64,000 bases of DNA, taken from NCBI GenBank assembly GCA_963737265.1, contig CAVTRY010000016.1, forward strand, positions 128,001-192,000. Direction: 5' to 3'. Both the position numbers and the translations under genes were made by a program. Each line of letters starts with the position of its first letter. Positions within the stretch are counted from its first letter, which is position 1. The notes beneath the pieces are model-generated. The model saw only the letters and a list, made by a program, of their open reading frames with translations, was not told where the DNA came from and made no database searches. Of the stretch, positions 844-58,650 are shown piece after piece. This stretch comes from an uncultured delta proteobacterium. GTDB taxonomy: Bacteria; Myxococcota_A; Polyangia; Fen-1088.

Positions 844-1199
844 AGTCCGAGCCGGTGCGATGTTGGCCTATTTCGCTCATAGATTCCGCCGGACGACCGG
901 AAGACGGCCATTGGATCGCATACCCAGAGGACAATCAGGGACATGACTTGATCATTTGCACGAGCTGTGGACACCTTTATGCAGTCAATGTTGCCAGAAT
1001 GGTTTACCTAGGTCCTCCGCTAGAGGAGAAGCTGAAGGTGCTTCTCTGCATGCAGTGCGGCGCGCCACTGAGCCGCACAGCAAGTGCATACCCAGAGACT
1101 TTTCGAGATAGGACCGGTGCGCTAAAGACCTGCGCACGCCCCCGTGAAATGCCGGCCGATGATCAGAGTGTGGTTCGAGATTTTGATCAGCTTTACTGA
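840..1199 (+). CDS. Putative immunity protein for Rhs1, with two CxxC motifs (Zn-ribbon-like)
   Basis: ATGA overlap with the toxin stop, lower GC, CTSC and CMQC motifs. Confidence 0.7.
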   Translation: MKSEPVRCWPISLIDSAGRPEDGHWIAYPEDNQGHDLIICTSCGHLYAVNVARMVYLGPPLEEKLKVLLCMQCGAPLSRTASAYPETFRDRTGALKTCARPREMPADDQSVVRDFDQLY

Positions 1200-1309
1200 T
1201 GGCAGAGATCCATGTCTCTGACCCAAGGTGCCTCTATTGACGTGGCCATGCGAAAGCCGGACAACCTCCGCACCCTGAACATCCCGCTGGCGAGTCTCCG
1301 CATTCCCCT

Positions 1310-1692
1310 GCGCTTGGGTGGTGCGCTTGGGTGGTGCGCTTGGGTGGTGCCAGGGTCTTTCTAAAAACGGGACGAACGGCGTCCGAGATCGCCAGCGTTC
1401 GAGCGGATAGCGGACAAGGGCGGGGGTCAGGACGGCGGTTTTGTCGTGAAACCTGGCGATTTCGAGCTGTCCAGGGCCAAGAGCGAGGCGGCGGAAGAGT
1501 GAGCCTCCATGCGGTGCGCTTGGGTGGTGCCAGGGTCTTTCTTAAAACGGGACGAACGGCGTCCGAGATCGCCAGCGTTCGAGCGGATAGCGGACAAGGG
1601 CGAGGGTCAGGACGGCGGTTTTGTCGTGAAACCTGGCGGTTTCGAGCTGTCCAGGGCCAAGAGCGAGGCGGCGGAAGAGTGAGCCTCCATGC
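1310..1692 (+). repeat. Repeat array 1: GCGCTTGGGTGGT stutters plus a 180-bp tandem duplication starting at the GGTGCCAGGGTCTTT motif
   Basis: 1333-1512 is nearly identical to 1513-1692 (gtccgagatc at 1381 and 1561). Confidence 0.9.
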
Positions 1693-1769
1693 GCCGGCAC
1701 ACGCCGGACAGACCTGTTCCTTCTCTGCCGGCGATCCAGTCCAATCGCCACGAATCGAGACCAGCCCCG

Positions 1770-2774
1770 TCAGGCCGGTGCGTTGAACGGCAAGGCCGGC
1801 GGGAAAGCCCCGAGGGGAAACATCTCCCTGATCTCGCGGGCGCGGTCGCGCAGGCGCAGGGCTCCGGCGCGGAAAGCGTCGACGAAGGCACGGTAGCGGA
1901 CACGGAATTCCTGCTCCGTCGAGTCGTCGCTTGCGTGGACGAAAGGTGCCGGGCTGCGATGGGTGGTTGTGGGCTTTGCGTGCGGATCTTGGGCGAGGAT
2001 GGCGGCGACACCCATGGGAGACCGCCCCTTCTCCTTGTTTTCGGCCTCGGCCGTGGCCTGGATCTCGCCGACGATGCGGCGGCACTCGGCCTCACCACGT
2101 GGGGAGCCGGCCAGCTTTGCTGGCCGCGTACCATCGCGGGAAGGTTTGGAAACACTCCTAGGGTTTCCAAGTCAGAATCGGCCAGCCGTCAGGTGTTCCA
2201 GGCACGGCAATGGAGTGAGCTCGACGTCGAAGGTGGTCGCGAACTGCGACGGGAAAACGGTCTCGCCACGCTGGCGGGCAAGAAACTCGGCGCTCCGGTC
2301 GAACCAGGTGCCACGCAGAATCTCGCCGGTGGTGAGGGCCGCGACGCAATTGGGACCCGGCCACGCGCCAGCAGACCCGACCAGGCCCTCCTTCGCGCCG
2401 TGGGCCAAGATGTATCGAAGGCGCGCGTGCGTGGCCCTTTCGTCGGCGACGACGATGGAGCGGTAGCGGCGAGACCACAGGCGCTCGCGCCACAGATAGA
2501 GCCGCCCCGCCTCCTTGGCCACGTTGGCATTCACGAACTGCATGAAAAGCGCGAGTTGACCGGCGCTGGTGGGTGAAAGCAAAAAGTGCGCGTGGGTGCT
2601 CAAAAACACGAAGGCGTAGATGGTCATGCCGTAGAGAGACTGGGCCTTGCCGATGACGCCGAGGATGATGTCGGTAAGCTCGGGCGAGGGCTTGAGTAGC
2701 AGCCTTCCCTGCAACGTACGGGTGGTGATCTCGACGACGGAGCGCTCGGGGATGAAACGGAGTGGCCGCGGCAT
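1770..2774 (-). mobile_element. HUH/Y1 (IS200/RAYT-like) transposase copy 1. Catalytic 200 aa intact; C-terminal part separated by an in-frame insert carrying a TGA
   Basis: MPRPLR start, HUH motif AFVFLSTHAHFLL, LWSRRY, catalytic-Tyr region LRYILAHGAKEGLV. ORFs 2172-2774 and 1770-2015 are in the same frame. Confidence 0.85.
2091..2179. repeat. 89-bp multi-hairpin miniature element inside the transposase (second copy at 14510-14598)
   Basis: Absent from copy 2, which has tcggcggt here. Stems ggccagc/gctggcc and ttggaaac/gtttccaa. Confidence 0.8.
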
Positions 2775-2860
2775 ACCGGACTATCGGCAAGGGAAGGCAC
2801 AAAGTTGCCCCCGCTGACCTGACCCCGGACAACCTCCGCGTTCTGAAGTAGCATCTCGCC

Positions 2861-5800
2861 GTGCCTGTGGCGACGACCTCGATCCTGCTGCTCGTGGCGT
2901 TGAGCGCTGCTGCCCCGGCACGCCCCGAGAACGAAAGGACTGGCGCCGTCATGGGTCTCGTCGGAGCGGCCGCGGCACCCAATCCCCTGGCCGCCGGCAT
3001 GGCCGCGGCGCAGACCGCCGTCGATACCGCCAAGATGGCCGTCGCCGCCCTGATGGGAAAAGATCCGGGCACGCCCCCGTGCATCGGGGCGATCTTGATG
3101 GGCACGCCCACGGTTCTCATCGGCGGCATTCCGCTGCCGCCCATCGAGAACTACGCGCGCGCCTTCTTCATGAAGCTGAACGGGCCGCTGGCCAGGGCCC
3201 TCCACAGCATCATCGGCAAGGTGCTGGGCAAGGGACGCGCGGCCAATTTCTTCAACGCCCTGACCTGCCACTTCACCGGCCACCCGGTCGACGTGGCCTC
3301 TGGGCGCATGCTGACTTCGGAAGAAGAGCTGCGCCTGCCGGGGCCGATTCCCCTCGTGTGGAAGCGCCAGTACGCCACCAGTTGGTCGGAACGCAACGGT
3401 CCGCTCGGCTGGGGCTGGAGCCACAGCTACGACATGGCGGTGTGGGGCGAGGCCGGCAAGCTGGTGTACCAGGCCGAAGACGGCCGCGAGATCGAGTTCG
3501 ATCTCGAGCCCGAGGCGCGCGACCGCATGCCGTGGCTGAAAGCGAACGAGCGCTGGGATCGCTTCAATCACCTGATCCTGCGCGAGTTGCGCGACGGCAC
3601 GTGGGAGGTCGAGAGCCTGGATGGTCTGGTGCGCGTCTTCGCGCCCATGCAAGGCGACCGCATTCGCCCCGGCCGGGCGCGCCTGGTATCCATCCGCGAC
3701 CGCTTCGACCACAAGATGACGTTCGGCTACGACCCCATCGGCAACCTGGCCATCATCGTGGACAGCGCCGGCCGCACCATCCGCGTGGAAAGCGACCAGG
3801 CCGGCCGGGTCGCGCGTGTGCTGGTGCCCGCGCCCGAGGCCGAGGCCTTCGTCGAGTACCTGCGCTACGACTACTCGCCCGAGGGCGACCTTGTGGCCGC
3901 CACCGATGTTCTTGGGCGCGCCATGCGCATGGGCTACGAGCGCCACCTCATGGTCAAGGAAACCAAGCGCGGCGGTTTGTCCTTCCACTTCGCCTACGAA
4001 GGCCGCGGCAACGACGCCCGCTGCATAGCGACCTGGGGCGACGGCGGCATCTACAAGCGCAGGCTTATCTACGACACCAACAACCACACCACCATCGTCA
4101 CCGACTCGCGCGGCGCGGACACCATCTACCGGATGAACGCCGACAACGCGGTGGTGTCGGTCACCGACGCCCTGGGCGCCGTCACCAAGTACGAATTCGA
4201 CGACTGCTACAACAAGATCTCCGAAACCGATCCACTCGACCACACCACCAGGTGGGCGTTCGACGAGCGGGGCAATTGCACCAAGGTCGTGCATCCCGAC
4301 GGCGCCGAGATTTCGCTCTTCTACGACGAGCGCAATGCGGTGATTCGCGCCGTCGACGCCATCAAGGGCGAGTGGCATTGGGAATACGACCGCGGTGGGC
4401 GCTTGCTGGCGCGCATGGATCCCTTAAGACGGGTCAGTCGCTTCGATTGGAAGTCCGAGGCCGAGCTGATGGGGCAGACCGGGCGGGTCGGTGCCGGCCT
4501 CAGCGCGGCCAAGCGCATGGTTGGCTTCACCGATCCGGCCGGTGGACAGACGACGCTGGAATACGACCGCCAGGGGTTGCTGGTCGGGATGCGCATGCCG
4601 AACGGGGCGCAGACGCGCTGGCGCTACGACCGCCTCGGCCGCTGCATCGAGGTCGTCGATACCAAGGGCAACCGCGAGCGGCGCGAATTCGATCTGGCCG
4701 GTCACATCCTGCGCGTCGACGTCCCCGACGGCAACGTGCGCAAGCTCGGCTACGATGCCGAGGGCAACGTGGTGGCGGTCAAGGACCAGCACTACGACGT
4801 GAAGTTCGCATACCAGGGCATGGGCCGCCTGGCCTCGCGCACGCAAGAAGGCACCACGGTCGCGTTCGAGTACGACAGCGAAGAATCGCTGGTGGCCATC
4901 CGCAACGAAGCCGGCGCCGTGTACCGCTTCACCCTGGACAAGGCCGGCAACGTCAAAGAAGAGAGCGGCTTCGACGGACTTTTGCGCAAATACGGCCGCG
5001 ACAAGGCTGGCCGCGTGCTGACCGTCGAGCGGCCCGACGAGCGCGCGACTGAGTACAGCTACGACACCGGCGGCCGGGTGGTCGCGGTCAAGTACAGCGA
5101 CGGCACAAGTGAAGAGTACGGCTACCGCCCCGACGGTGCCTTGATGGCGGCGATCAATGCCGCCGCCGAGGTCAAATTCGAGCGCGATGCCCTGGGCCGC
5201 ATCGTGAAGGAAGTTCAAGGCGAAGACACCGTGGAAAGCGCCTTCGACCTGCTCGGCCTGCGCAGCCGCATGAAGACCAGCAAGGGGCACGTGCTGGAGA
5301 TCGAGCGCAACCTCGTCGGCGACGTAGTGGGCATGAAGGCCGGCGGCGGCCCGGTTGCATCAGGTAGCGCGCCCGCCGCGCAGGCCGCCCTGCCACCCTG
5401 GGAAGCCCGCTTCACCCGCGATCAGCTTGGCCTGGAGGTCGAGCGCACCTTGCCCGGTGGCGTGCGAGCCCGCTGGGAGCGCGACAGCGTCGGCCGCCCC
5501 GTCAAGCACGAGATCTGGTCTGGCGGCACCGTGGTGTCCGCCCAGTCCTACACCTGGGAGCCCAACGACCGCCTCAAGATGATCATCGATGCCCTCAAGG
5601 GTCCCGTGCAGTACCGCCACGATGGCCTGGGCAACCTGATCGGCGCAGCCTACGCCGACGACAAGATCGACCTGCGCATGCCCGACGCTGTCGGCAACCT
5701 GTTCAAGACCCCCGACAAGAAAGATCGCAAGTACGGCCCCGCCGGCCAGCTATTGGAATCGCGGGGCGCCGACGGCGTCACGAAGTACGAATACGACCCC

Positions 5801-6928
5801 GAAGGCAACCTGGCCAAGAAGATCCTGCCCGACGGCAGCGCGTGGAAATACGAGTGGAACGGCGCCGGCATGCTGGCCAAGGTCATCCGCCCCGACGGCA
5901 AGACGGTAGAATTCGGCTACGACGCCCTCGGCCGCCGGGTCTGGAAGAAATACGGCGCCAAGACCACCAAGTGGATCTGGGACGGCAACGTGCCCGTGCA
6001 CGAATGGGTCGAGGTGGATCCGTCCGTGGAAGCCCCGCCGTCGCAGCAAGAAGCCGTGGAGTGGGAAAACGGGCTGCCCGCCCGCAAGTTCATGCTGACC
6101 AAGCGCTTCGCGCAAGGTCCCCCCTTGTCCGATCCCCTCTCCCACTGGGAGAGGGCTAGGGTGAGGGAAAATGCGACGGGAACAGCCGCCGCCCCCATCA
6201 CCTGGGTCTTCGAGCCCGAGTCTTTCGCCCCCCTCGCCAAACTGACCGCCACCGCAAGGTTCGGCATCGTCACCGACCACCTCGGCACGCCCACCGCGAT
6301 GATCGACGAGCGGGGGAAGACGGTGTGGGGTGCGGACATCGGTGTGTACGGCGACTTGCGAAACGTCGTCGGTGAGAAGGCGGCGTGTCCGTTTAGGTGG
6401 CCGGGGCAGTACGAGGACGAGGAGACGGGGCTGTATTACAACCGATTCCGGTACTACGACCCGGGGGCGGGGGAGTATGTAAGCCAGGATCCGATTGGGT
6501 TGAAGGGCGGACTGCGCGCCCATGGATACGCACACGATCCGCTAGCCTGGCTTGATCCGCTTGGACTCACATGTGGACCAGCAGGAAAGGACGTGGAAGA
6601 GCCACCCCACGTGTTCTGGTCAGGAGGAGAGAAGGCGATGAAGGCTGCCCAAGCATGGGCTGAGAAGCACGGTGGGGTCACATTGGAAATGACGGCAGGT
6701 GGCAGGCGCGCTGTTCGACACACTCAGGGTCTGGACGATTGGGAAATGGCCCGACCAGTCTGGGCCAAGGAGTCGCGACTGTTTGCTAAGAAGTCACAAG
6801 GCGAGGTTCATGTCTTTGCGACAAAAGAAGCCATGAACGATCCCAATCGCATTTTGAATTCCGTGGAAATACCGGCGCTGAAGCAAAATCCCCAGGTGAC
6901 AACCATTGTCCCACACGAGGTGCCATGA
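2861..6928 (+). CDS. rhs: Rhs protein 2: element-derived leader, PAAR-like remnant, DUF6531, YD repeats, core, and ADP-ribosyl-cyclase-like (Tox-ARC) tip
   Basis: MGTPTVLIGG, GHPVDVASG..GPLGWGWSHSY, YD repeats, DPLGL. Tip FWSG..TLEMT..W..SRLFA..GEVHV..SVEIPAL resembles CD38/ARC motifs. Confidence 0.9.
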   Translation: MPVATTSILLLVALSAAAPARPENERTGAVMGLVGAAAAPNPLAAGMAAAQTAVDTAKMAVAALMGKDPGTPPCIGAILMGTPTVLIGGIPLPPIENYARAFFMKLNGPLARALHSIIGKVLGKGRAANFFNALTCHFTGHPVDVASGRMLTSEEELRLPGPIPLVWKRQYATSWSERNGPLGWGWSHSYDMAVWGEAGKLVYQAEDGREIEFDLEPEARDRMPWLKANERWDRFNHLILRELRDGTWEVESLDGLVRVFAPMQGDRIRPGRARLVSIRDRFDHKMTFGYDPIGNLAIIVDSAGRTIRVESDQAGRVARVLVPAPEAEAFVEYLRYDYSPEGDLVAATDVLGRAMRMGYERHLMVKETKRGGLSFHFAYEGRGNDARCIATWGDGGIYKRRLIYDTNNHTTIVTDSRGADTIYRMNADNAVVSVTDALGAVTKYEFDDCYNKISETDPLDHTTRWAFDERGNCTKVVHPDGAEISLFYDERNAVIRAVDAIKGEWHWEYDRGGRLLARMDPLRRVSRFDWKSEAELMGQTGRVGAGLSAAKRMVGFTDPAGGQTTLEYDRQGLLVGMRMPNGAQTRWRYDRLGRCIEVVDTKGNRERREFDLAGHILRVDVPDGNVRKLGYDAEGNVVAVKDQHYDVKFAYQGMGRLASRTQEGTTVAFEYDSEESLVAIRNEAGAVYRFTLDKAGNVKEESGFDGLLRKYGRDKAGRVLTVERPDERATEYSYDTGGRVVAVKYSDGTSEEYGYRPDGALMAAINAAAEVKFERDALGRIVKEVQGEDTVESAFDLLGLRSRMKTSKGHVLEIERNLVGDVVGMKAGGGPVASGSAPAAQAALPPWEARFTRDQLGLEVERTLPGGVRARWERDSVGRPVKHEIWSGGTVVSAQSYTWEPNDRLKMIIDALKGPVQYRHDGLGNLIGAAYADDKIDLRMPDAVGNLFKTPDKKDRKYGPAGQLLESRGADGVTKYEYDPEGNLAKKILPDGSAWKYEWNGAGMLAKVIRPDGKTVEFGYDALGRRVWKKYGAKTTKWIWDGNVPVHEWVEVDPSVEAPPSQQEAVEWENGLPARKFMLTKRFAQGPPLSDPLSHWERARVRENATGTAAAPITWVFEPESFAPLAKLTATARFGIVTDHLGTPTAMIDERGKTVWGADIGVYGDLRNVVGEKAACPFRWPGQYEDEETGLYYNRFRYYDPGAGEYVSQDPIGLKGGLRAHGYAHDPLAWLDPLGLTCGPAGKDVEEPPHVFWSGGEKAMKAAQAWAEKHGGVTLEMTAGGRRAVRHTQGLDDWEMARPVWAKESRLFAKKSQGEVHVFATKEAMNDPNRILNSVEIPALKQNPQVTTIVPHEVP
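6134..6167. repeat. boxC-like palindromic element inside the Rhs coding frame (also 12296-12329)
   Basis: cccctctcccactgggagagggctagggtgaggg, translated as PLSHWERARVR. Absent from Rhs1 (GPPPPEASGTAAAP). Confidence 0.7.
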
Positions 6929-7410
6929 GTGGAAAGAGGAAAAGGGTCGGTTCGGGAAGGCAAGAACCAAGCAAGCCATGGAACGGTGTCGAGCTTTTCA
7001 AAGAGATGGAAGGGAAAACCTCCGGGTACTTGGGCCACATAAAGGTGACTTTTGTTCGGGATGACCGCTCTGACGAGGAAATAGGGGCAGCTGACCGTGC
7101 GAGGTGGCAAGAGCATCGGATTTGGGAGATGCCTCTGGGCTTCAGTCTTGTACCCAACGGTCGCGCTGGTACCATCTACTTTCGTCGAGGCCAGAAGCTA
7201 GTCGAGTTGGACGCTGAGTTGGCGGGCAATCCGGCCCTCGACATCGTGCTGTCCGGTGGTGATTTGAGCAAATGGATCGATGTAGATACTCTCGGATCGG
7301 AGCCGGTTTCCGCCGAGGATCAAAGTGGAATCAGGGATTCCCTCATCGAATGGCTGACCAAGAAGGGACTTAAGTTCTCCATTGGGGGCGTTGTGATCGT
7401 TCGGCGGTAG
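6925..7410 (+). CDS. Immunity protein, Imm74-like
   Basis: ATGA coupling to the toxin. GRAG.IY..G....E...W.....VS..DQ..I...L...G pattern. Imm74 is the known partner family of Tox-ARC. Confidence 0.7.
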   Translation: MSGKRKRVGSGRQEPSKPWNGVELFKEMEGKTSGYLGHIKVTFVRDDRSDEEIGAADRARWQEHRIWEMPLGFSLVPNGRAGTIYFRRGQKLVELDAELAGNPALDIVLSGGDLSKWIDVDTLGSEPVSAEDQSGIRDSLIEWLTKKGLKFSIGGVVIVRR

Positions 7411-7416
7411 AAATGA

Positions 7417-8250
7417 GGGGTGGTGCCGCTTGGGTGGTGCCGCTTGGGTGGTGCGCTTGGGTGGTGCCAGGGTCTTTCTGAAAACGGGACGAACGGCGTC
7501 CGGTGCGCTTGGGTGGTGCCAGGGTCTTTCTGAAAACGGGACGAACGGCGTCCGAGATCGCCAGTATTCGAGCGGATAGCGGACAAATGCGAGGGTCAGG
7601 ACGGCGGTTTTGTCGTGAAACCTGGCGGTTTCGAGCTGTCCAGGGCCAAGAGCGAGGCGGCGGAAGAGTGAGCCTCCATGCGCCGGCACACGCCGGACAG
7701 ACCTGTTCCTTCTCTGCCGGCGGTCCAGTCCCGGTCCAGTCCAATCACCACGAATCGAGACCAGCCCCGTCAGGCCGGTGCGTTGAACGGCAAGGCGCCG
7801 CTTGGGTGCGCCGCTTGGGTGCCAGGGTCTTTCGCGCCGCTTGGGTGCCAGGGTCTTTCGCGAGACGCCGTGGGTGGTGCCCGTGGGTGGTGCCAGGGTT
7901 TTTCTGAAAACGACAAGGCCCGTGGGTGGTGCCAGGGTTTTTCTGAAAACGACAAGGCGGTGCGCGGGGGTGGTGCCAGGGTCTTTCTGAAAGCTGGAGG
8001 AACGCTTGGGTGGTGCCGGGGTCTTTCTGAAAACGGGACGAACGGCGCGGGGATGGTGCCGCGGGGGTGGTGCCAGGGTCTTTCTGAAAGCTGGAGGAAC
8101 GCTTGGGTGGTGCCAGGGTCTTTCTGAAAACGGGACGCACGGCGTCCGAGATCGCCAGTGTTCGAGCGGATAGCTGTCGCTTGGGTGGTGCCAGGGTCTT
8201 TCTGAGGAGCTAAAGGAACGCTTGGGTGGTGCCAGGGTCTTTCTGAAAAC
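7417..8250 (+). repeat. Repeat array 2: about 12 co-oriented GGTGCCAGGGTYTTTC copies, each followed by a variably truncated tail
   Basis: Copies near 7463, 7515, 7818, 7843, 7889, 7928, 7972, 8012, 8069, 8109, 8187, 8228. Confidence 0.9.
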
Positions 8251-9155
8251 GGGACGAACGGCGTCCGAGATCGCCAGCGTTCGAGCGGATAGCGGACAAG
8301 GGCGAGGGTCAGGACGGCGGTTTTGTCGTGAAACCTGGCGGTTTCGAGCTGTCCAGGGCCAAGAGCGAGGCGGCGGAAGAGTGAGCCTCCATGCGCCGGC
8401 ACACGCCGGACAGACCTGTTCCTTCTCTGCCGGCGGTCCAGTCCAATCACCACGAATCGAGACCTGCCCCGTCAGGCCGGTGCGTTGAACGGCAAGGCCG
8501 GCGGGAAAGCCCCGAGGGGAAACATCTCCCTGATCTCGCGGGCGCGGTCGCGCAGGCGCAGGGCTCCGGCGCGAAAAGCGTCGACGAAGGCACGGTAGCG
8601 GATACGGAATTCCTGCTCCGTCGAGTCGTCGCTTGCGTGGACGAAAGGTGCCGGGCTGCGATCGGTGGTTGTGGGCTTTGCGTGCGGATCTTGGGCGAGG
8701 ATGGCGGCGACACCCATGGGAGACCGCCCCTTCTCCTTGTTTTCGGCCTCGGCCGTGGCCTGGATCTCGCCGACGATGCGGCGGCACTCGGCTCGGCGGT
8801 GGTCAGCCGTCAGGTGTTCCAGGCACGGCAATGGAGTGAGCTCGAACGTCGAAGGTGGTCGCGAACTGCGACGGGAACACGGTCTCGCCACGCTGGCGGG
8901 CAAGAAACTCGGCGCTCCGGTCGAACCAGGTGTGAAGTGGACCCCTTTGGTAGGACCAGAAATGGCCCGAGCTAAGAGAGAGTCCGCGTGGGTTTGTTTG
9001 TAGATCCGGGTGAGCCTCGCCGGCAAGGAAATTGTTGAGAGCGGAGGCATGCTGATGGCTGCTGTCCACGGATGCAATGCGCGCACGGCCCCACAGAAGC
9101 AGGTGAACGCGTTGCAGTTGTGGGCAGCGTGCCATCAGCATGATGCAGCGGCGAT

Positions 9156-9992
9156 TTAGGCGGCCTCTTTCATCGCCGACTTCTTTAGTTCGAATTCGTA
9201 AAACGCTACGGGTGTCTGAAATCCAAGGGTTTGGTGAGGCCGCCTGTGGTTGTACTTGTCCAGGTAGATCGCGATGCCACTGCGGGCGTCGGCCACGTCT
9301 CGGTAGTCGTTCAAGTAGACCTCCTCGCATTTGACAGACCGCCATAGACGCTCGACGAAGATGTTGTCCATGAATCGGCCGCGACCGTCCATGCTGACCT
9401 TTACGCCCTTGTCCAGCAAAACCGATGTGAAGTTGTCGTCGGTAAACTGCGACCCCTGGTCGGTGTTGAAGATCTCCGGCAAGCCGAAGTTCGCAAGAGC
9501 TTCTTCCACGACCTCGATGCAAAAACGGCTGTCCATCGTGTTTGAAATGCGCCAGGACAGAACCCGGCGCGTGTACCAATCCATCACGGCGACCAGGTAG
9601 CAATGCCCCTGTCTCGTCGGGATGTACGTGATATCCGAGGCCCACACCTGATTGGGCCGAATGATCGCGAGATGGCGCAGCAAGTACGGGAATTTCGTAT
9701 GTTCCGGCGCGGGGACGGTCGTCCGTGGTTTGGGCGCCAGCGCTTCGATGCCCATGATTCGCATCAGTCTCTGCACCCGTTTGCGATTCACCGTCTGCCC
9801 CTGTGCCTTTAGCAACCGTGACAGCTTCCGGCTGCCGAATGCTGGCAATTCGAGATGCAGCTTGTCCAGCTCCTTGCAGATGGCCAGATCTTCCTCTGCC
9901 ATCGGCATCGGCTCCCAGTAGATGCCCGATCTCGCAAGATTCAGCAGCTCGCACTGCCGACGGACAGATAGGTCGTTGTGGGGCTCGATCAT
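9156..9992 (-). CDS. IS3 transposase OrfB (DDE integrase core)
   Basis: NQVWASDITY, NTDQGSQFT, DNIFVERLWRSVKCE. Confidence 0.95.
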   Translation of the reverse strand: MIEPHNDLSVRRQCELLNLARSGIYWEPMPMAEEDLAICKELDKLHLELPAFGSRKLSRLLKAQGQTVNRKRVQRLMRIMGIEALAPKPRTTVPAPEHTKFPYLLRHLAIIRPNQVWASDITYIPTRQGHCYLVAVMDWYTRRVLSWRISNTMDSRFCIEVVEEALANFGLPEIFNTDQGSQFTDDNFTSVLLDKGVKVSMDGRGRFMDNIFVERLWRSVKCEEVYLNDYRDVADARSGIAIYLDKYNHRRPHQTLGFQTPVAFYEFELKKSAMKEAA

Positions 9993-10006
9993 GGCGCGCT
10001 TCTCCG

Positions 10007-10300
10007 TCAGCGAATGCGCGCGAGCCCGCGTGCTAAAAAATCATTCTCCAGCGTCAGCTGCCCCACCTTGCGCAGCAATTCCGATTCGCGTTCGGCGTTC
10101 GCCGATTCCTCTGCATTTGCATGGCCTGGTTCGAAAACCATGGCCAGCCGTGTGACGGCTTCCTTCTTCCACTTGTGAACCAGGTTCGGGTTGATCTTGT
10201 ATCGGCGCCCGATCTCCACAACCGTTGCCTGCTCCCGCATGGCTTCGAGAGCTACCTGCGCCTTGAAGAGTGCTGTGTGCTTTTGGCGGTTCGTTTTCAT
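10007..10300 (-). CDS. IS3 transposase OrfA (HTH), joined to OrfB by a predicted -1 frameshift
   Basis: FKAQVALEA..KVGQLTLENDFL. T TTT TTA slippery site at 10034-10040; the -1 frame is open into OrfB. Confidence 0.9.
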   Translation of the reverse strand: MKTNRQKHTALFKAQVALEAMREQATVVEIGRRYKINPNLVHKWKKEAVTRLAMVFEPGHANAEESANAERESELLRKVGQLTLENDFLARGLARIR

Positions 10301-10921
10301 CGTGTCCTGCCTCGTTGTTGAGGCGGACTACACCTTAGCTCCTGGTCCCATTTTTGGGGTCCACTTCAGTGCCACGCAGAATCTCGCCGGTGGTGAGGGC
10401 CGCGACGCAATTGGGACCCGGCCACGCGCCAGCAGACCCGACCAGGCCCTCCTTCGCGCCGTGGGCCAAGATGTATCGAAGGCGCGCGTGCGCGGCCCTT
10501 TCGTCGGCGACGACGATGGAGCGGTAGCGGCGAGACCACAGGCGCTCGCGCCACAGATAGAGCCGCCCCGCCTCCTTGGCGACGTTGGCATTCACGAACT
10601 GCATGAAAAGCGCGAGTTGACCGGCGCTGGCCGGCGAGAGGAGAAAATGGGCATGCGTGGAAAGGAATACGAAGGCATGGATGGTCATGCCGTAGAGAGA
10701 CTGGGCCTTGCCGATCACGCCGAGGACGATGGCGGTAAGCTCGGGCGAGGGCTTGAGTAGCAGCCTTCCCTGCAACGTACGGGTGGTGATCTCGACGACG
10801 GAGCGCTCGGGGATGAAACGGAGTGGCCGCAGCATACCGGACTATCGGCAAGGAAAGGCGCAAAGTTGCCCCCGCTGACCTGACCCCGGACAACCTCCGC
10901 GTTCTGAAGTAGCATCTCGCC

Positions 10922-13102
10922 GTGGCTGCGGCGACAACCTCGATCTTGCTGCTCCTGGCTTTGAGCGGTGCCGCCCCATCATGCCCCAAGAATGAAAGGA
11001 CTGGCCGCGAGGCTGGTACCAGAATTTTTCTCGGCGGAGTCTATCGCGAGGCTGGTGCCAGAGTTTTTCTCGGCGGCGCCATCTATCGGTTCAAACTGGA
11101 TGCCGCTGGCGATGTCGCGGAAGAATGCGGCTTCGACGGACTTTTGCGCAAATACGAGCGCGACCTGGCCGGCCGAGTGAAGAAGGTTCTGCGCCCAGGG
11201 GCGAGATTCTCCGAATACGGTTACGATCCAGCCGGCCGAGTGGTCGCCGTCAAGCACAGCGACGGCAGCGAGGAGCAGTTCGCGTACCGCCCCGATGGCG
11301 CCATGATCCAAGCCGGGAACGCCAACGGCGTACTAGCGCTAGAGCGCGATCTGCTCGGCCGCCTGGTGCGGGAAGGCCAGGACGGCCACTTCGTCGAGAG
11401 CCAGTACGACCTGCGCGGCCTGCGCAGCCGCATGACTTCGTCGTTCGGACACGTGCAGGAAATCGAACGCAACGTGATGGGCGACGTGACCGCCATCCGC
11501 GCCGGGGGCGGCTACCTGGCGCCCAAGGACGCGGGCGAGGCGGCGAAGCCCGCGGACATGTTCGAAGCGCGCTTCACCCGCGATCAGCTGGGCCAAGAGC
11601 TGGAGCGCACCCTGCCCGGTGGTGTACGCAGCCGCTGGGAGCGCGACAAGCTGGGCCGCCCCGTGAAGCACGAAGTGTGGTCGGGAAACAAAGCCATCGC
11701 CGCTTGGGCCTACACCTGGGACGTGAACGACCGCCTGCGCATGGTCGTCGACGCGCTCAAGGGCCCCGTCAGCTACGAGCACGATGCTTTCGGCAACCTG
11801 GCCAAAGCCGTCTATGCCGACGGCCAAGTCGACCTGCGCATGCCCGACGCCGTCGGCAACCTGTTCAAGACCACCGACAAGAAAGACCGCAAGTACGGCC
11901 CCGCCGGCCAGCTATTGGAATCGCGGGGCGCCGACGGCGTCACGAAGTACGAATACGACCCCGAAGGCAATCTCGCCAAGAAGATCCTGCCCGACGGCAG
12001 CGAGTGGAAGTACGAGTGGAACGGCGCCGGCATGCTGGCCAAGGTCGTTCGCCCCGACGGCAAGACGGTAGAATTCGGCTACGACGCCCTCGGCCGCCGG
12101 GTCTGGAAGAAATACGGCGCCAAGACCACCAAGTGGATCTGGGACGGCAACGTCCCCGTCCACGAGTGGGTCGAGGTGGATCCGTCCGTGGAAGCTCCGC
12201 CGCCGCAGCAAGAAGCCGTGGAATGGGAAACCGGGCTGACCGCCCGCAAGTTCATGCTGACCAAGCGCTTCGCGCAAGGTCCCCCCTTGTCCGATCCCCT
12301 CTCCCACTGGGAGAGGGCTAGGGTGAGGGAAAATGCGACGGGAACAGCCGCCGCCCCCATCACCTGGGTCTTTGAGCCCGAAAGCTTCGCTCCCCTCGCC
12401 AAGCTAACCGCCATCGCAAGGTTCGTCATCGTCACCGACCACCTCGGCACGCCCACCGCCATGCTCGACGAGCGGGGGAAGGCGGTGTGGTCCGCCGACA
12501 TCGGCGTGTACGGCAACTTGCGAAACGTCGTCGGCGAGAAGGCGGCGTGTCCGTTTAGGTGGCCGGGGCAATACGAGGACGAAGAGACGGGGCTGTATTA
12601 CAACCGGTTCCGGTACTACGACCCGGGGGCGGGGGAGTATGTCAGTCAGGATCCGATTGGGCTCCGCGCAGGACTCCAATTTGCATCGTACGCCAGAGAT
12701 CCGTTGGCCCATATAGATCCGTTGGGCCTCAGCTGCGTGCCACCTGATCCTGAGGTTGCCGATGCAATTGCGTCTGGACGACCGATCGTAGTTGTCGGCC
12801 GCAGCATGGGACGGGTTGGGCCGGTTGCCGATGCGATTCGGGCAGCGGGAGGGGATGTGAAGACATACAATCCCAGAAACTTCCGTACTACGCCTGGCAA
12901 TATCGAGCCGAAGGACGTGGCGGCGAATCGGTCATGGCTCAAGTATTGGGCAAAGGATCGGAACGCATTGATTGTCGATATCGGATACGACCCCGCCAAA
13001 CCAGGAGTCGCGGGGCCGTTCTACGGCGTAGAACGGGCGTCCCTATACAAGAACTGGGCGTCCGATGGCGTCGACGTTGTTCCGTACAACCCCGGATTCT
13101 AA
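10922..13102 (+). CDS. rhs: Rhs protein 3 (internally truncated, fused to element leader) with C-terminal toxin of unassigned family
   Basis: Rhs homology starts at GAIYRFKLD, matching GAVYRFTLD of Rhs2. Core and DPLGL present. Tip VVGRSMGRV..NRSW..IVDIGYD..FYGVER. Confidence 0.85.
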   Translation: MAAATTSILLLLALSGAAPSCPKNERTGREAGTRIFLGGVYREAGARVFLGGAIYRFKLDAAGDVAEECGFDGLLRKYERDLAGRVKKVLRPGARFSEYGYDPAGRVVAVKHSDGSEEQFAYRPDGAMIQAGNANGVLALERDLLGRLVREGQDGHFVESQYDLRGLRSRMTSSFGHVQEIERNVMGDVTAIRAGGGYLAPKDAGEAAKPADMFEARFTRDQLGQELERTLPGGVRSRWERDKLGRPVKHEVWSGNKAIAAWAYTWDVNDRLRMVVDALKGPVSYEHDAFGNLAKAVYADGQVDLRMPDAVGNLFKTTDKKDRKYGPAGQLLESRGADGVTKYEYDPEGNLAKKILPDGSEWKYEWNGAGMLAKVVRPDGKTVEFGYDALGRRVWKKYGAKTTKWIWDGNVPVHEWVEVDPSVEAPPPQQEAVEWETGLTARKFMLTKRFAQGPPLSDPLSHWERARVRENATGTAAAPITWVFEPESFAPLAKLTAIARFVIVTDHLGTPTAMLDERGKAVWSADIGVYGNLRNVVGEKAACPFRWPGQYEDEETGLYYNRFRYYDPGAGEYVSQDPIGLRAGLQFASYARDPLAHIDPLGLSCVPPDPEVADAIASGRPIVVVGRSMGRVGPVADAIRAAGGDVKTYNPRNFRTTPGNIEPKDVAANRSWLKYWAKDRNALIVDIGYDPAKPGVAGPFYGVERASLYKNWASDGVDVVPYNPGF
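11006..11070 (+). repeat. Two variant motif copies at the leader/Rhs3 junction
   Basis: cgcgaggctggtaccagaatttttctcggcgg and cgcgaggctggtgccagagtttttctcggcgg. Confidence 0.8.
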
Positions 13103-13103
13103 A

Positions 13104-13608
13104 ATGGAAAAGCTGGTTTCTTCCTTCAATGAAATCTTCACCAAGACAGCGCTCGAACGCGTTCTCGTTCCTTGTCAAGAGAAGAGACTTTGAATTCTGC
13201 GACGTTTGGCATGATCGGAATGCCGACCCACGTGATCTTGAGACAAAGATCCGTTATCGGAGTCCACGAGTCTTCGTTGATATCGTCCTGACCGAGGTCG
13301 ATCTTGGACTCTTTGTCTTCGCATGGAGAATTCCAACGGGCGCTGCTCGCGGTGCGTGTTGGGCACTGCAGCCGACTGGTGTCGTGAACTTCGACCTATA
13401 CCTTCAAGATCACTTCGGGGATAGTCTTCCGCCGCTCTTCCTGGATTTGAAGAAGCCGATCTATTTGACAGAGATGTACAATCAACAGTCACGAAAATAC
13501 GCGCGACTCCTTGCGGCTCGACTGCCGGAGGCAATTCGAGGCACAGCAGGGCGTCTCGAGAAATACGGCAGGGAACTACTTGACGGCATCCCCTCTGCAT
13601 TCACGTAG
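13104..13608 (+). CDS. Putative immunity protein for Rhs3 (apparent +1 frameshift near 13156, or alternative start at 13129)
   Basis: ATG 1 bp after the toxin stop. Removing one A in ctcgaac gives MEKLVSSFNEIFTKTALDAFSFLVKRRDFEF, continuous to 13608. Confidence 0.65.
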
Positions 13609-13629: not shown

Positions 13630-13970
13630 GCGCTTGGGTGATGCGCTTGGGTGGTGCCAGGGTCTTTCGTGTCCTTCCGTGCTAGGTGCCCGTGCTAGGT
13701 GCCAGAGTCTTGATTAAGGCTTACGTCAGGACGGTGCGTGCTAGGTGCTGCGTGCTAGGTGCCAGAGTCTTGATTAAGGTTTGCGTCAGAACGGTCCCCC
13801 AAGTTCTGTACGGTCGAGTTGATTGAGACCTGATGGGAACTATCTGCCGCTTGGGTGGTGCCAGGGTCTTTCTGAAAACGCTTGGGTGGTGCGCTTGGGT
13901 GGTGCGCTTGGGTGGTGCCAGGGTCTTTCTGAAAACGCTTGGGTGGTGCCAGGGTCTTTCTGAAAACGGG
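13630..13970 (+). repeat. Repeat array 3: about 6 motif copies, including the variant CGTGCTAGGTGCCAGAGTCTTGATTAAGG
   Basis: Standard copies near 13653, 13857, 13914, 13945; variants near 13698 and 13758. Confidence 0.9.
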
Positions 13971-14188: not shown

Positions 14189-14762
14189 TCAGGCCGGTGC
14201 GTTGAACGGCAAGGCCGGCGGGAAAGCCCCGAGGGGAAACATCTCCCTGATCTCGCGGGCGCGGTCGCGCAGGCGCAGGGCTCCGGCGCGGAAAGCGTCG
14301 ACGAAGGCACGGTAGCGGACACGGAATTCCTGCTCCGTCGAGTCGTCGCTTGCGTGGACGAAAGGTGCCGGGCTGCGATGGGTGGTTGTGGGCTTTGCGT
14401 GCGGATCTTGGGCGAGGATGGCGGCGACACCCATGGGAGACCGCCCCTTCTCCTTGTTTTCGGCTTCGGCCGTGGCCTGGATCTCGCCGACGATGCGGCG
14501 GCACTCGGCCTCACCACGTGGGGAGCCGGCCAGCTTTGCTGGCCGCGTACCATCGCGGGAAGGTTTGGAAACACTCCTAGGGTTTCCAAGTCAGAATCGG
14601 TCAGCCGTCAAGTGTTGCAGGCACGGCAATGGAGTGAGCTCGACGTCGAAGGTGGTCGCGAACTGCGACGGGAACACGGTCTCGCCGCGCTGGCGGGCAA
14701 GAAACTCGGCGCTCCGGTCGAACCAGGTGCCACGCAGAATCTCGCCGGAGTGGCCGCGGCAT
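14189..14762 (-). pseudogene. HUH/Y1 transposase copy 3 with a ~431-bp deletion removing the catalytic domain
   Basis: Junction ctcgccgg|agtggccg joins the copy-1 equivalents of 2329 and 2761 through CGG microhomology. Carries the 89-bp insert. Confidence 0.85.
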
Positions 14763-19422: not shown

Positions 19423-20328
19423 CTACTGTTGCAGGCCCAGATCCTTTCGAATTGCGACCACCATCTTGCAGTGATCGATGACATCCGCCTCGGATTTGAC
19501 CTCGGACGTGTAATTGAGACCATAGGGCCAGAAATGCTGCGTGTCGGCGGTGAGAACGTCGGTTGCGATGCCGGTGATCGCGCGCAATTGGGCAGTGGCG
19601 TTTCCGCCCGTGAACGGTCCAGACGTTCCACCGTCGGGAATCGCCACGAAGGAACGCCAATTGGACGCCGTACCAATGCCGACGGTGTGGGCAATCTCGT
19701 GCATGGCGGTGATGTATTCCATGTAGGCCGTTCCGCCGAACCGAATCGACCCATTGATGTTGCCGTCGGCGGTTGGCACCGACGCATTGTACGTGACATT
19801 CTCAGCTTTGGTGATGTTGGTGTAACAATTGTAATAGGAAATGGCCTTGTCCATGGCCGTCGTAATTAGGGCGTACGCGCTTTGTTCAGCGGCGGACGGG
19901 TTGGCGGTCTTGGCAAGCGTGTACGTGACGTGTCCAATGTAGGGACAGGACGAAGCGTCGCCGCTCGCATCGGGCGGCGGAAGGGAGGTCGCATCCCAGG
20001 TCGCATCGCTCCCACTGTCGGCGGCAGAATCCGGCTGCGCGTCGAGTTTTGCATCAACCTGTCCGTCCTTGGCGGCGTCGCGGCCAGCTTCCGGCTGCAT
20101 GTCCGTCGAACCGCCGGTTGCAATTCCACCGCCGGTTGCAATTCCACCGCCGGTGGCGATTCCACCGCCGGTTGCAATTCCACCGCCGGTGGCGATTCCG
20201 CCGCCGGTTCCGCTTCCACCGCCGGTGGCAGCAGCCGCGGCATCAGGCTGGGCCGCGATCTTTGAATTCTGACTTGAAGTGCACCCGCCCCAAACCACCG
20301 CCAGAACGAGCAAGCTTCGCTTGATCAT
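19423..20328 (-). CDS. Lipoprotein with GGGIAT repeats and a C-terminal HExxH (zincin-like) domain
   Basis: Signal MIKRSLLVLAVVWGGC, five GGGIAT repeats, AMHEIAHTVGIG. Confidence 0.75.
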   Translation of the reverse strand: MIKRSLLVLAVVWGGCTSSQNSKIAAQPDAAAAATGGGSGTGGGIATGGGIATGGGIATGGGIATGGGIATGGSTDMQPEAGRDAAKDGQVDAKLDAQPDSAADSGSDATWDATSLPPPDASGDASSCPYIGHVTYTLAKTANPSAAEQSAYALITTAMDKAISYYNCYTNITKAENVTYNASVPTADGNINGSIRFGGTAYMEYITAMHEIAHTVGIGTASNWRSFVAIPDGGTSGPFTGGNATAQLRAITGIATDVLTADTQHFWPYGLNYTSEVKSEADVIDHCKMVVAIRKDLGLQQ

Positions 20329-55743: not shown

Positions 55744-58650
55744 ATGCGCCACAAGATTCGAGAATTTGGAAGTTTGGGATTGGGAGTGCTCTTGACTGGA
55801 GCCCTCGCCTGCAGCGGGCAGCCGAAGGGCAGCGGAGTCGACTTCAATAGCAACGGCTATGAAGGATTTACCGATACGCACTTCGATCTACTCTCGGCGT
55901 CTTGTACGATCACGAGCGGAAACCTTGCCCTGTCGGTCGGGGCCAACGAGACTGCCTACCTATTCAAACGGCCAGGCGATGGCATGGTGGTGGCCAACGC
56001 AACCAACCAGGCCGGCACCGAGTGTGACTGGGCTCCGGTTGTCGCGGGCGTCGCCAAGACTCTGACGATTACCTCGTCCGGGGCTGGCAACACCGTTCTG
56101 TTGGACTTCATGAACGGCCAATTCGGCGTGGGAAGCAAGACCGGCGCGGCTATCTCCATTACTCTTGGTGGTACCACCAGCGACACCCTCATGATTCGCG
56201 GAAGCGCCAACGCCGACATCGTCACCTTGGGCACGGCGACGACGGGCAGCACGCCAACCCTGATTTCCTACAACCCCGGCACGAGCACCACCAAGGCGCC
56301 CGCGGCCAAAACCTTTCCGGATATCAGCGTGACGGGTGCGCTCAACATCATCGTCAGCGCCGGTCCGGGCAATGACATCATCACCGGTCAAGGTGGCGCG
56401 GCCGTTGGCGGGGCTGGCTTGCTCGATGGGAAAATTAGCCTGACCGTCTATGGTGGCGTCGGCGACGACACGATTACCAGCGGCGCTGCCAGCACTGGCG
56501 GCGCGTTCAACACGCTCCAGGGCAACGACGGAAGCGACCTCTTCATCGAGCCGTGCTCCGCCACCAAACCGTATCCTGGCATTCTGGCCAGCGACAGCAT
56601 CTACGGCGGTCCCGATACGCAGAGTACGCCCGCCACGGATGTGGACACCGTCGACTATAGCTGCCGGACCAACGACCTGACCATCACGCTGGGAGAACCC
56701 GCCGTGGCGGCGACGGGAAGCGTAACAGTGCCAGCAAGGGCGAATTTCGCGGCTGGCGATTTCTTCACTCTCAACGATGGCACTAATCCGGTCGTCAGCT
56801 TCGCGTATGAGTCGGCGTCGAAGGGCACGGTAACGATTACGCCGTGGGCAGGCAGCCCAACCAAGGTGTCGCAGATCAACGACCACGACACGCTCTTAGT
56901 AAACGACGGAGTTGCTCCGGCGCAAACCTATGAATTCAAGACGACCCAGGGTGATATCAATAGCATAGCGTCCGGGATCCCGGCGGCTTCGGGCATCCAT
57001 TGGGTGCAGACTAACGACGCATACACCACGATTGACGTGTCGCTTGACGCCGCCTCGCCCATCACGAGCGAGAGCGACGAAGCCGAGGTAACCCTCGCCG
57101 CGTTGACGACCGGAATCTTCGATTCTGCCACGGGAACAATCAAGCCCACGCGCGCTGGCAACGTCATCACCTTCGCGAACAATCTCGGACTCAATTCGGG
57201 CACGGCGGCCATCACGTACACCAAGGCCGGCGCCAACACGGCCATGACCGCGTCGGATTTCGCGGGTGGTGTTGACCCCAGTCTAGTTTACAACACCGGG
57301 ACCGTTGTAAACATCGACATCTCCAACGCTTCAACCCCGGCAGCGGTGGCGGCCCTGACCGCGGTTGCCATCAATAGCTATGGCGCGCTTCTTACCCTAT
57401 CAGCTGTGTCCGATATTAACGGCAAGATCACTCTGACGAATCTGGTGCCTGACACGACTCTCACCACAGGAAATCTCCTGGGCGTGGCAGGATCCGCCAA
57501 TTTCACCACCCCCATTGCCATGACCGGCGGGGCGGCCGCATCCGCACCCGCCGCGAATGACGGTGAATCCGGCGAAAAGGACAACATCCATGCCGACATC
57601 GAAAACATCATCGGCGGCGCTGGCAACGATACGATCGATGCTTCGCTGGCGCCTTTGAAGCACGTTCTCATGGGCATGGCGGGCAACGACACCCTGATCG
57701 GCGGCGTCGACAAGGACACGCTCTACGGCGGCCCGGGCGACGACACTCTCATCGGCGGCGGCGGCAACGACTACCTTATCGGTGGCGACGGCAACGACGT
57801 GCTCCAAGGTGGGCTCGGCGATGACACCCTCGACGGCGGCGGTCAGAACTGTATCGTCACGGCGGTAGCCTCCCCCACCAGCGGATGGGCGCCGATCACG
57901 ACCATCTCCAAGACCAATCCGTTCATCATGTTGTCGCCAACCCCGGCGGTATCCTCGGTGTGCTCGGCGAGCTTCGCCAAGGCATCGACCACGACCAACC
58001 CGGGCAACAATACCATCGACTTCAGCGACCGCTGGTCTGCCGTCACGGTGGACCTGTCGCTGGTGAGTGCAGCGGTGATTGCCAATCCGACCATCAGCAT
58101 CGTGCAGCCGGCAGGCGCCTACGTGGGCGAAAGCGACACCCTCATCCTCACCACGACGGTGGGGGGAACTGCAAAACTGCCCACGTACACGTTCCAGAAC
58201 ACGATTCAGAACATCCGCGGCGGTGCGGGCGACGACGCTCTGACCGGCGACATCCTCTCCAACGTCATCTGGGGCGGTAATGGCAACGACACAATTGTTG
58301 GCAACGCCGGCGACGACTTCCTGTACGGAGAAGGCGGCTCCGACATCATCTACGGCAACAGCGGAAACGACTATATTTCGGGCGGTCCAGGTGTGGACTT
58401 CCTGTTTGGGGACAATGACACGAACTGTGCCTTCGCAACCACGGTAGGTTGCACCGGCGTCGGCATCGGCAACTACGACTACACGGCTCCCGGCGCCGAT
58501 GTGCCCGGCGTCGACTTCATCGATGCGCAAGCCAATGATGTCGACAGCGCCATCGATTGCGGTCCCTACTCGCTCGGGGACATTGCAGTTAGGGACAAGT
58601 ACACCCTCGCGGGCGCCGATCCGGCCGGCAACAACTGCCAGGGCCTCTAG
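55744..58650 (+). CDS. Lipoprotein with RTX Ca-binding repeats, paralog of 48045-51035
   Basis: Lipobox ALAC, shared EGF..THFDLLS..C N-terminal domain, GGxGxD repeats. Confidence 0.87.

Follow-up and report, generated by a model that had tools for sequence, protein, structure and literature searches.

Fixed-start, ragged-end repeat arrays at the ends of a Y1/HUH transposase element in an rhs cluster

The nested repeats at 7417-8250 belong to a real, recurrent and transposase-linked structure, an array of partial copies of an element's end, which recurs at both ends of related elements in 16 genomes. We consider the chances somewhat better than even that the array was left behind by the Y1/HUH transposase of the element itself, through copying in place with occasional capture of other ends. 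The window is the whole stretch of 64,000 nucleotides that was analysed, and its features are collected in Table 1.

The first 15 kb of the window are occupied by an rhs cluster that holds three copies of one transposase element. Each copy lies behind an rhs C-terminus with its probable immunity gene and before the 5′ region of the next rhs gene, and array 2 starts 6 nt past the stop of the first rhs/immunity module; the immunity label of both modules is a probable one, taken from position. All three transposase copies are broken (Table 1). An insert of about 90 bp is common to copies 1 and 3 (2091-2179 and 14510-14598) and missing from copy 2, and inside it there are a short inverted repeat and an in-frame stop. 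The core of the innermost end of copy 2 is at 8229, 243 nt from the stop codon of the transposase. The tandem repeats at 57682-57842 and 20110-20230 (27-bp and 18-bp units, respectively) are coding and unrelated to the element. Neither an Rfam match nor a tRNA was found in the window.

Table 1. Features of the rhs cluster and its element copies (window positions).
Feature	Position	Strand	Remarks
Array 1	1311..1530	+	Two 13-nt units, one 180-nt unit, a stub and the innermost end of copy 1
Transposase copy 1	1770..2774	-	Contains an in-frame insert, with a stop, near residue 198
rhs gene (DUF6531, RHS repeats, core) and probable immunity gene	2861..7410	+	
Array 2	7417..8250	+	Units (tag+core) from the downstream end of the element, with starts fixed and ends ragged; 4 or more tag types; short stubs
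Longest unit of array 2	7506..7796	+	Covers the last 9 codons of the transposase gene
Innermost downstream end and non-coding tail of element copy 2	8219..8471	+	No significant hairpin
Y1/HUH RAYT-like transposase copy 2	8472..10835	-	Broken by IS3 insertion and frameshift
IS3-family element inside transposase copy 2	8933..10368	-	3-bp target duplication
Second rhs gene, internally deleted, and probable immunity gene	10922..13608	+	Array 3 next
Two-unit mini-array of a foreign end	11006..11085	+	Same strand as the arrays
Array 3	13631..13960	+	Own-tag units and units of a foreign end
Transposase copy 3	14189..14762	-	Most of the catalytic half deleted

Between 7411 and 8240 we counted 21 hits of the core, which come down to 18 tag+core units once an interior site (7778) and two 5-nt stubs (7503 and 7960) are set aside. 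The full motif is present in 12 of them, and this is probably the figure behind the "about 12 copies" of the earlier note. The element's own tag was found in eight units (7427, 7441, 7454, 7506, 8003, 8100, 8178, and 8219), a shortened tag in three (7799, 7812, and 7838), a second tag in three (about 7868, 7881, and 7920) and a third one also in three (7963, 8046, and 8060); the outermost unit (7417) is cut. The claim of a common start sequence had therefore to be given up, since just 8 of the 18 units carry the own tag and what is fixed is the position of the starting C, placed 7-10 nt 5′ of the GT[GTA]CC core in the 17 uncut units. The rest of the anatomy described earlier was borne out: the fixed-start, ragged-end array lies where it had been placed, and the copies with a known donor end at +3/+4, +35, +39, +65, and +270 (offsets from the core). 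The long copy of about 290 bp, at 7506-7796, does reach the transposase and goes past its stop codon (offset +243 to +245). Within its first 176 nt this copy differs from the innermost end at four positions, and it has an internal duplication of 11 nt. It also shares with the 8100 copy a substitution at +49 that is absent from the innermost end, from which it follows that the copies have ages and lineages. Compound tandem duplications of several units were also seen (blocks of 26, 60, 97, and 119 bp), and, given that the blocks of 97, 60, and 26 bp are of this kind, the units outnumber the events. Unit lengths go from 13 to 293 nt, the variable part being element-end DNA.

The pattern is repeated in the two other places where it had been proposed, namely, array 1 with its 180-bp duplication, whose copy with a known donor ends at +167, and array 3, with ends at +15 and +23. 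The foreign end of array 3 best resembles the upstream ends of relatives (30/41 nt with locus L004). It is followed at 13790-13847 by about 60 nt of unexplained DNA, which may be the interior of a sister element. The mini-array lies where the second rhs gene lacks about 2 kb in comparison with the first, right at the junction. Before array 1, a 23-nt stretch (1257-1279) has a weak match of 87% to 2825-2847, upstream of the transposase (E 0.25).

Relatives of the element were collected in one scan of species-representative genomes, which gave 41 loci, mostly from Myxococcota and Thermoanaerobaculia assemblies, with two peptide patterns that favoured the close clade. An inward-pointing core was anchored on 54 of the 88 sides examined (82 from the loci and 6 from the window). 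Six of these anchors came from a looser scan (L005D, L028D, L027U, L035U, L036U, and L037U), L034U was mis-anchored despite its visible array, and the downstream repeats of L026, L028, and L029 were left uncounted. These last, and also the upstream side of L034, belong to more distant relatives, in which the repeats are tandem or nested and their cores diverge. The end motif covers about 14 nt, with the core GT[GTA]CC usually followed by AG and a pair of T, and it points inward at both ends of the element. In the 17 loci where both ends were anchored, the two share 8-13 of the 14 core nucleotides and only 2-8 of the 12 tag nucleotides. In 27 of the 28 anchored loci the distance between the downstream core and the end of the gene match is 236-284 nt, and in L005 it is 415 nt. 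A C at offset -10 is present in 25 of 31 downstream ends (three of them from the window copies) and in 13 of 22 upstream ends.

Outward copies were found at 29 of the 51 anchored ends, which correspond to 23 loci in 16 assemblies other than the window, and were absent at the other 22. Under the same tiling rule, none of the 69 core-like control sites on both strands of the window from 16001 to 64000 had an outward anchored copy, and the strict motif was not found in that region. For the tiling, outward DNA was compared with an inner master of 434 nt and segments of at least 10 nt were kept. The start of 144 of the 164 tiled segments (122 of 141 when the window is taken out) falls in the 15-nt zone between -14 and 0, and their ends extend to +295; the other 20 begin outside this tag zone. 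Internal stutters that do not begin at the tag were seen in L004, L005, L012, and L015, and at many unit junctions there are 1-7 additional nt. These stray starts, stutters, and additional nucleotides, like the 22 ends with no copy, speak against the simplest form of a fixed-start mechanism. In L011 the gene is entered at its 3′ end by a downstream unit and at its 5′ end by an upstream unit, the latter mirroring the longest unit of array 2. The upstream array of this locus (900-5000) also has a unit with unrelated DNA, and its transposase gene is split by an element with an rve integrase and an AAA ATPase. Lone ends or mini-arrays away from any transposase are present in L001, L006, L015, L020, and L033; two of these mini-arrays, from different genomes, have the same 18-nt sequence after a core-like motif (L006, 3625-3642; L020, 2610-2627). 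It is also noted that L017 has no downstream end and that its end motifs on the upstream side of the gene (4860-4914) are turned outward. The arrays adjoin unrelated genes, on either strand. No empty site was found among the 41 loci; the one paralogous stretch, in L013, loses its likeness at the C-run where the tag begins. Target-site duplications were not evident by eye in 15 loci, whose outer edges are blurred by the arrays.

The intact relatives of the transposase have 307 aa, and the best 120 of 620 matches are 79-96% identical. Among 125 aligned relatives, H61 and H63 of the HUH motif are kept in 124 and 108, respectively, and Tyr121 in 124. The tyrosine lies in the motif Y-[LIV]-L-[AS]-[HQN]-G-x-KE, which departs from Y---NP in that the position of P is occupied by G in 111/125 and by S in 11/125. 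The fold model (mean pLDDT 74.7), with a C-terminal half made mostly of long helices, had its best match in E. coli TnpA_REP (4er8, E 3.3e-5), followed by ISDra2 TnpA (2xo6), and the PDB gave no significant sequence match. In each of the 12 proteins analysed, PF01797 was the sole Pfam family, no HTH family was found at E 0.01, and the NCBIfam model NF047646 (RAYT) scored 37-58 bits, below its cut-off of 80 bits; NF033573 (IS200/IS605) scored 19-21 bits in three of them, against a cut-off of 55. By its HUH motif, its single Tyr about 58-67 aa later and its Y1 fold, the protein is placed in the TnpA_Y1 (HUH/Y1) superfamily, and as such it would cleave and rejoin single strands through a 5′ phosphotyrosine. 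The wider family comprises 680 clusters at 50% identity (E up to 1e-30), and searches of plasmid and phage collections gave no match at E 1e-8. The presence of 2-4 divergent copies beside unrelated genes in 9 genomes suggests that the element may still move as a unit. Pfam was run on 91 of the 114 picked flanking ORFs, and no TnpB appeared among the flanking ORFs scanned.

A hairpin or REP structure was rejected for the ends, which give no fold signal across the family: 53 ends fold no better than shuffles (mean z +0.28 and +0.33, with 1 and 0 of 53 below -2). In the window, one of ten folds was significant (z -2.5), in the stretch of the mini-array. The four nucleotides ahead of the core are variable, the commonest being GGTG (10/53 ends), and no conserved GT[AG]G guide was found. 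The consensus GGGGWSAS is present in 0/54 anchored ends; upstream of the window copies there is one unpaired match, at 2819-2826 on the minus strand. To our knowledge, known Y1 enzymes need a hairpin, and its absence from these ends counts against the mechanism proposed below.

In the mechanism that we propose, the element would consist of a gene for a transposase of about 307 aa, bounded at both ends by the inward motif of about 14 nt. The transposase would bind the motif on single-stranded DNA with no hairpin, nick at a C placed some 8-11 nt to the 5′ side of the core and stay linked to the 5′ end, giving the fixed start. HUH enzymes leave a 5′ phosphotyrosine and a 3′-OH, according to the available text of PMC8266576, and by this chemistry the fixed 5′ start on the inward-reading strand would be the nick. 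The freed 3′-OH of the flank would prime host synthesis into the element; a second nick would follow at a downstream C, from a few to about 300 nt away and most often in the CC of the core, and its 3′-OH would attack the phosphotyrosine, so that the old end would gain one more partial end on its outer side. Every complete copy could fire again, with nested and compound units as the result, while the same chemistry between two loci would bring the ends of sister elements into an array and leave lone mini-arrays elsewhere. Since all three window copies are broken, we infer that an intact copy elsewhere supplied the enzyme. Nick, extension, second nick, and rejoining are the steps of the amplification model for E. 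coli BIMEs, which in the part of PMC3333891 available is backed by in vitro half-reactions only; there, TnpA_REP cuts at C^T up to more than 400 nt from its binding site and performs strand transfer in vitro.

Most units in the related loci bear the tag of the end that they adjoin. The units with other tags or interiors cannot have been copied from the present local end, and for those that match it at only 13-25 of 31 nt either transfer from another locus or survival of older ends would be needed; capture in trans may be implied by these foreign units. The tags themselves probably derive from the flank beside the core after insertion. The anatomy, its polarity and its recurrence across the family, the HUH/Y residues and fold, and the lack of a hairpin are observed; the nick sites, the priming step, the capture in trans, and the intact donor copy are conjectured from the sequence, which would fit both nick-primed copying and the excision and re-insertion of single-strand circles.

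The points where copies stop were analysed by asking whether the donor match ends at C or CG, the null being nearby random breakpoints joined to a C-starting tag. In a first test, C came next in 3/6 long junctions, which are too few to be informative. Across the family, 42/67 junctions were at C/CG (null 35.3, P 0.056), with 27/45 in a second family-wide version (null 22.1, P 0.088), neither result being significant, and in the window only they were 7/7 (null 4.4, P 0.036). The strongest test, which was designed last, after the earlier results, and takes anchored segments only with a narrower jitter, gave 64/93 (null 43.1), 33/47 for segments that go beyond +12 (null 22.3, P 0.0006), and 52/78 without the window (P 0.0004). 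Among 146 anchored segments, 57 end at +4/+5, the CC of the core. The four usable tests lean the same way, and termination at C is likely, short of being established; the ragged ends are probably second cuts at C rather than random stalls.

The same enzyme and nick sites could also have given the arrays with no priming, if pieces running from the starting C to a variable C were excised as single-strand circles and re-inserted at any end already present, local or remote, or if whole elements inserted abortively at such ends. We regard this as unlikely, though less so than the other alternatives. Foreign tags and interiors, as in the units that match the local end at 13-25/31 nt, would be explained directly, and so would the lone mini-arrays far from a transposase (11006-11085 and those of L006, L020, L033, L001, and L015); moreover, an excision-integration model has been published for BIMEs (PMC3333891, in the text available). 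On the other hand, many units measure 13-14 nt and the frequent ends at +4/+5 leave most of the motif missing, which is very small for circles, and the prevalence of the neighbouring end's tag in related loci also speaks against it.

Slippage during host replication with unequal recombination in a G-rich stretch, the transposase being uninvolved, is a poor candidate for the arrays as a whole. Secondary events of this type are probably included among the compound blocks and the stutters that do not begin at the tag, but the overlaps at the junctions between units, of only 1-2 nt, are too short for ordinary slippage, the starts keep one offset from the core across unrelated tags and on both strands, the control sites had no copies, and slippage cannot bring in foreign ends. 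The preference of the earlier note for nick and strand transfer over slippage is thus supported in part and by inference, from the fixed starts and ragged ends, the short overlaps, and the recurrence in 16 genomes; to be added to it are the probable second cuts at C, the units that cannot derive from the present local end, and the compound blocks.

Still less probable is selection for a function, whether the repeats would act behind the rhs-immunity operon as terminators or RNA stabilisers of the REP type or would serve as a store in the manner of CRISPR. Each array of the window lies directly behind a probable immunity gene and nine terminator-like sites were found on the + strand versus 1.6 expected, but six of these repeat one and the same weak 5-bp stem, neither a conserved fold nor an Rfam match supports a structured RNA, and arrays stand beside unrelated genes on either strand. 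A CRISPR array was rejected on the lengths of the units and on the DNA after the repeat, nearly always of element-end origin and not foreign spacers, and no Cas family was found among the 91 flanking ORFs scanned. Function alone, besides, would not produce the anatomy. A sequencing or assembly artefact is hardly credible. Ns in a few related arrays (L003, L022, and L033) would favour it, but the anatomy is present in 16 independent assemblies, from several assemblers to judge by contig names, and the copies have diverged, with the +49 substitution shared by two of them.

The downstream end lies behind an rhs module also in L013, L015, and L024, and homologues of the window's toxin-tip and immunity pairs are present in L013 and L015. 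A single origin of this link was rejected: 4 of the 39 rows of the tree, which left out L037, L039, L040, and L041 as too short, are rhs-linked and need 4 changes, at least 3 of them forced by well-supported branches, so that the link arose or was lost repeatedly. The upstream motif is absent from 3/3 window copies and from 3/3 rhs-linked loci and is kept in 19/27 other Myxococcota-clade loci, several of the remaining 8 being truncated. The unit duplicated in the window starts with the array, spans the gene and extends into the rhs 5′ region, an extent that would fit one-ended read-through and also ordinary recombination in a tolerant region. A wider proposal, speculative and in our opinion improbable as a whole, is that of a large undescribed family of Y1 transposons in which each of two inverted, hairpin-less ends would be both rolling-circle origin and landing pad, and whose arrays would log the firings and the sister elements; in the rhs copies, devoid of the upstream end, read-through would duplicate kilobase units of end, transposase, rhs, and immunity gene and seed deletions. 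If this were true, the element would be a generator of diversity of rhs toxin modules.

The arrays look like frozen products of the model in the available text of PMC3333891, with a start, an end, and a donor that can be read for each event. The enzyme would be predicted to nick at a C some 10 nt ahead of the core, to terminate at C, and to need no hairpin. Recognition of a short motif devoid of structure, with joining at almost any C, would be new for a Y1 enzyme and could, possibly, provide a tool for joining single-strand DNA.

Neither this family nor nested arrays of ends were found described in the literature searched, which was mostly open-access. By hairpins, guide, tyrosine motif, TIR consensus, and HTH, the family falls outside REPtrons and TIRtrons, the nearest systems, and by other features outside IS200/IS605 and IS91. 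IS91/ISCR elements, known for one-ended transposition, resemble it, in the text available of PMC13181058, in the HUH enzyme, the fixed origin, and the imprecise termination. They make no target duplication; here none was evident by eye at outer edges that are blurred by arrays. IS91 is described there with distinct oriIS and terIS, subterminal palindromes, and a tetranucleotide target, whereas our family has the same origin-like motif at both ends on opposite strands, no palindromes, an IS200/RAYT-like fold, and copying that stops early instead of running past a terminator. IS200/IS605 elements (TnpA of subclass 1.1) share the Y1 fold, the multiple copies, and mobility as a unit, which the varied flanks suggest here, but the family lacks subterminal hairpins and Y---Q, and its end motifs are on opposite strands, while IS200/IS605 elements have both ends processed on one strand. 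The class motifs are Y---NP for class 2 and Y---Q for class 1 in the portion of PMC6006769 available. TnpA_REP genes beside prochlorosin genes (bioRxiv 10.1101/2020.03.09.984088) offer a parallel for RAYT-like copies and fragments within a diversifying cluster, here of rhs modules; they belong to a different subclass, and the preprint, in the text available, finds no strong evidence of causation.

In layout, the nearest systems are the TIRtrons (TIRYT; PMC3733652), which correspond to about subclass 2.1 of PMC6006769 and, in the available text, have a RAYT-like gene with inverted terminal motifs, as here. Inverted ends were anchored in 17 of our loci, the inverted match being of only about 14 nt; unlike in TIRtrons, GGGGWSAS was found in none of the ends and a C-terminal HTH in none of the 12 proteins. 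Some TIRs occur as dispersed or clustered repeats according to the text of PMC3733652, which does not describe nested ragged arrays, and its figures may bear on the comparison. In mechanism, the nearest are the REPtrons, which in the available parts of PMC3333891 and PMC8266576 share with the family the Y1/HUH fold, tandem arrays beside the gene, and cutting of low specificity at a site that contains C and lies 5′ or 3′ of the bound motif, and whose amplification model predicts the fixed start and variable end seen here. Unlike them, the family has no hairpin, no conserved GTAG guide, and no Y---NP, its protein is twice as long, several divergent copies occur per genome in unrelated contexts, and nested partial copies that enter the gene take the place of REP/iREP pairs. 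A REPtron/RAYT gene is low-copy and non-mobile, with hundreds of dispersed repeats, and the multiple copies found here argue for mobility; the family may link IS200-like transposons and domesticated REPtrons.
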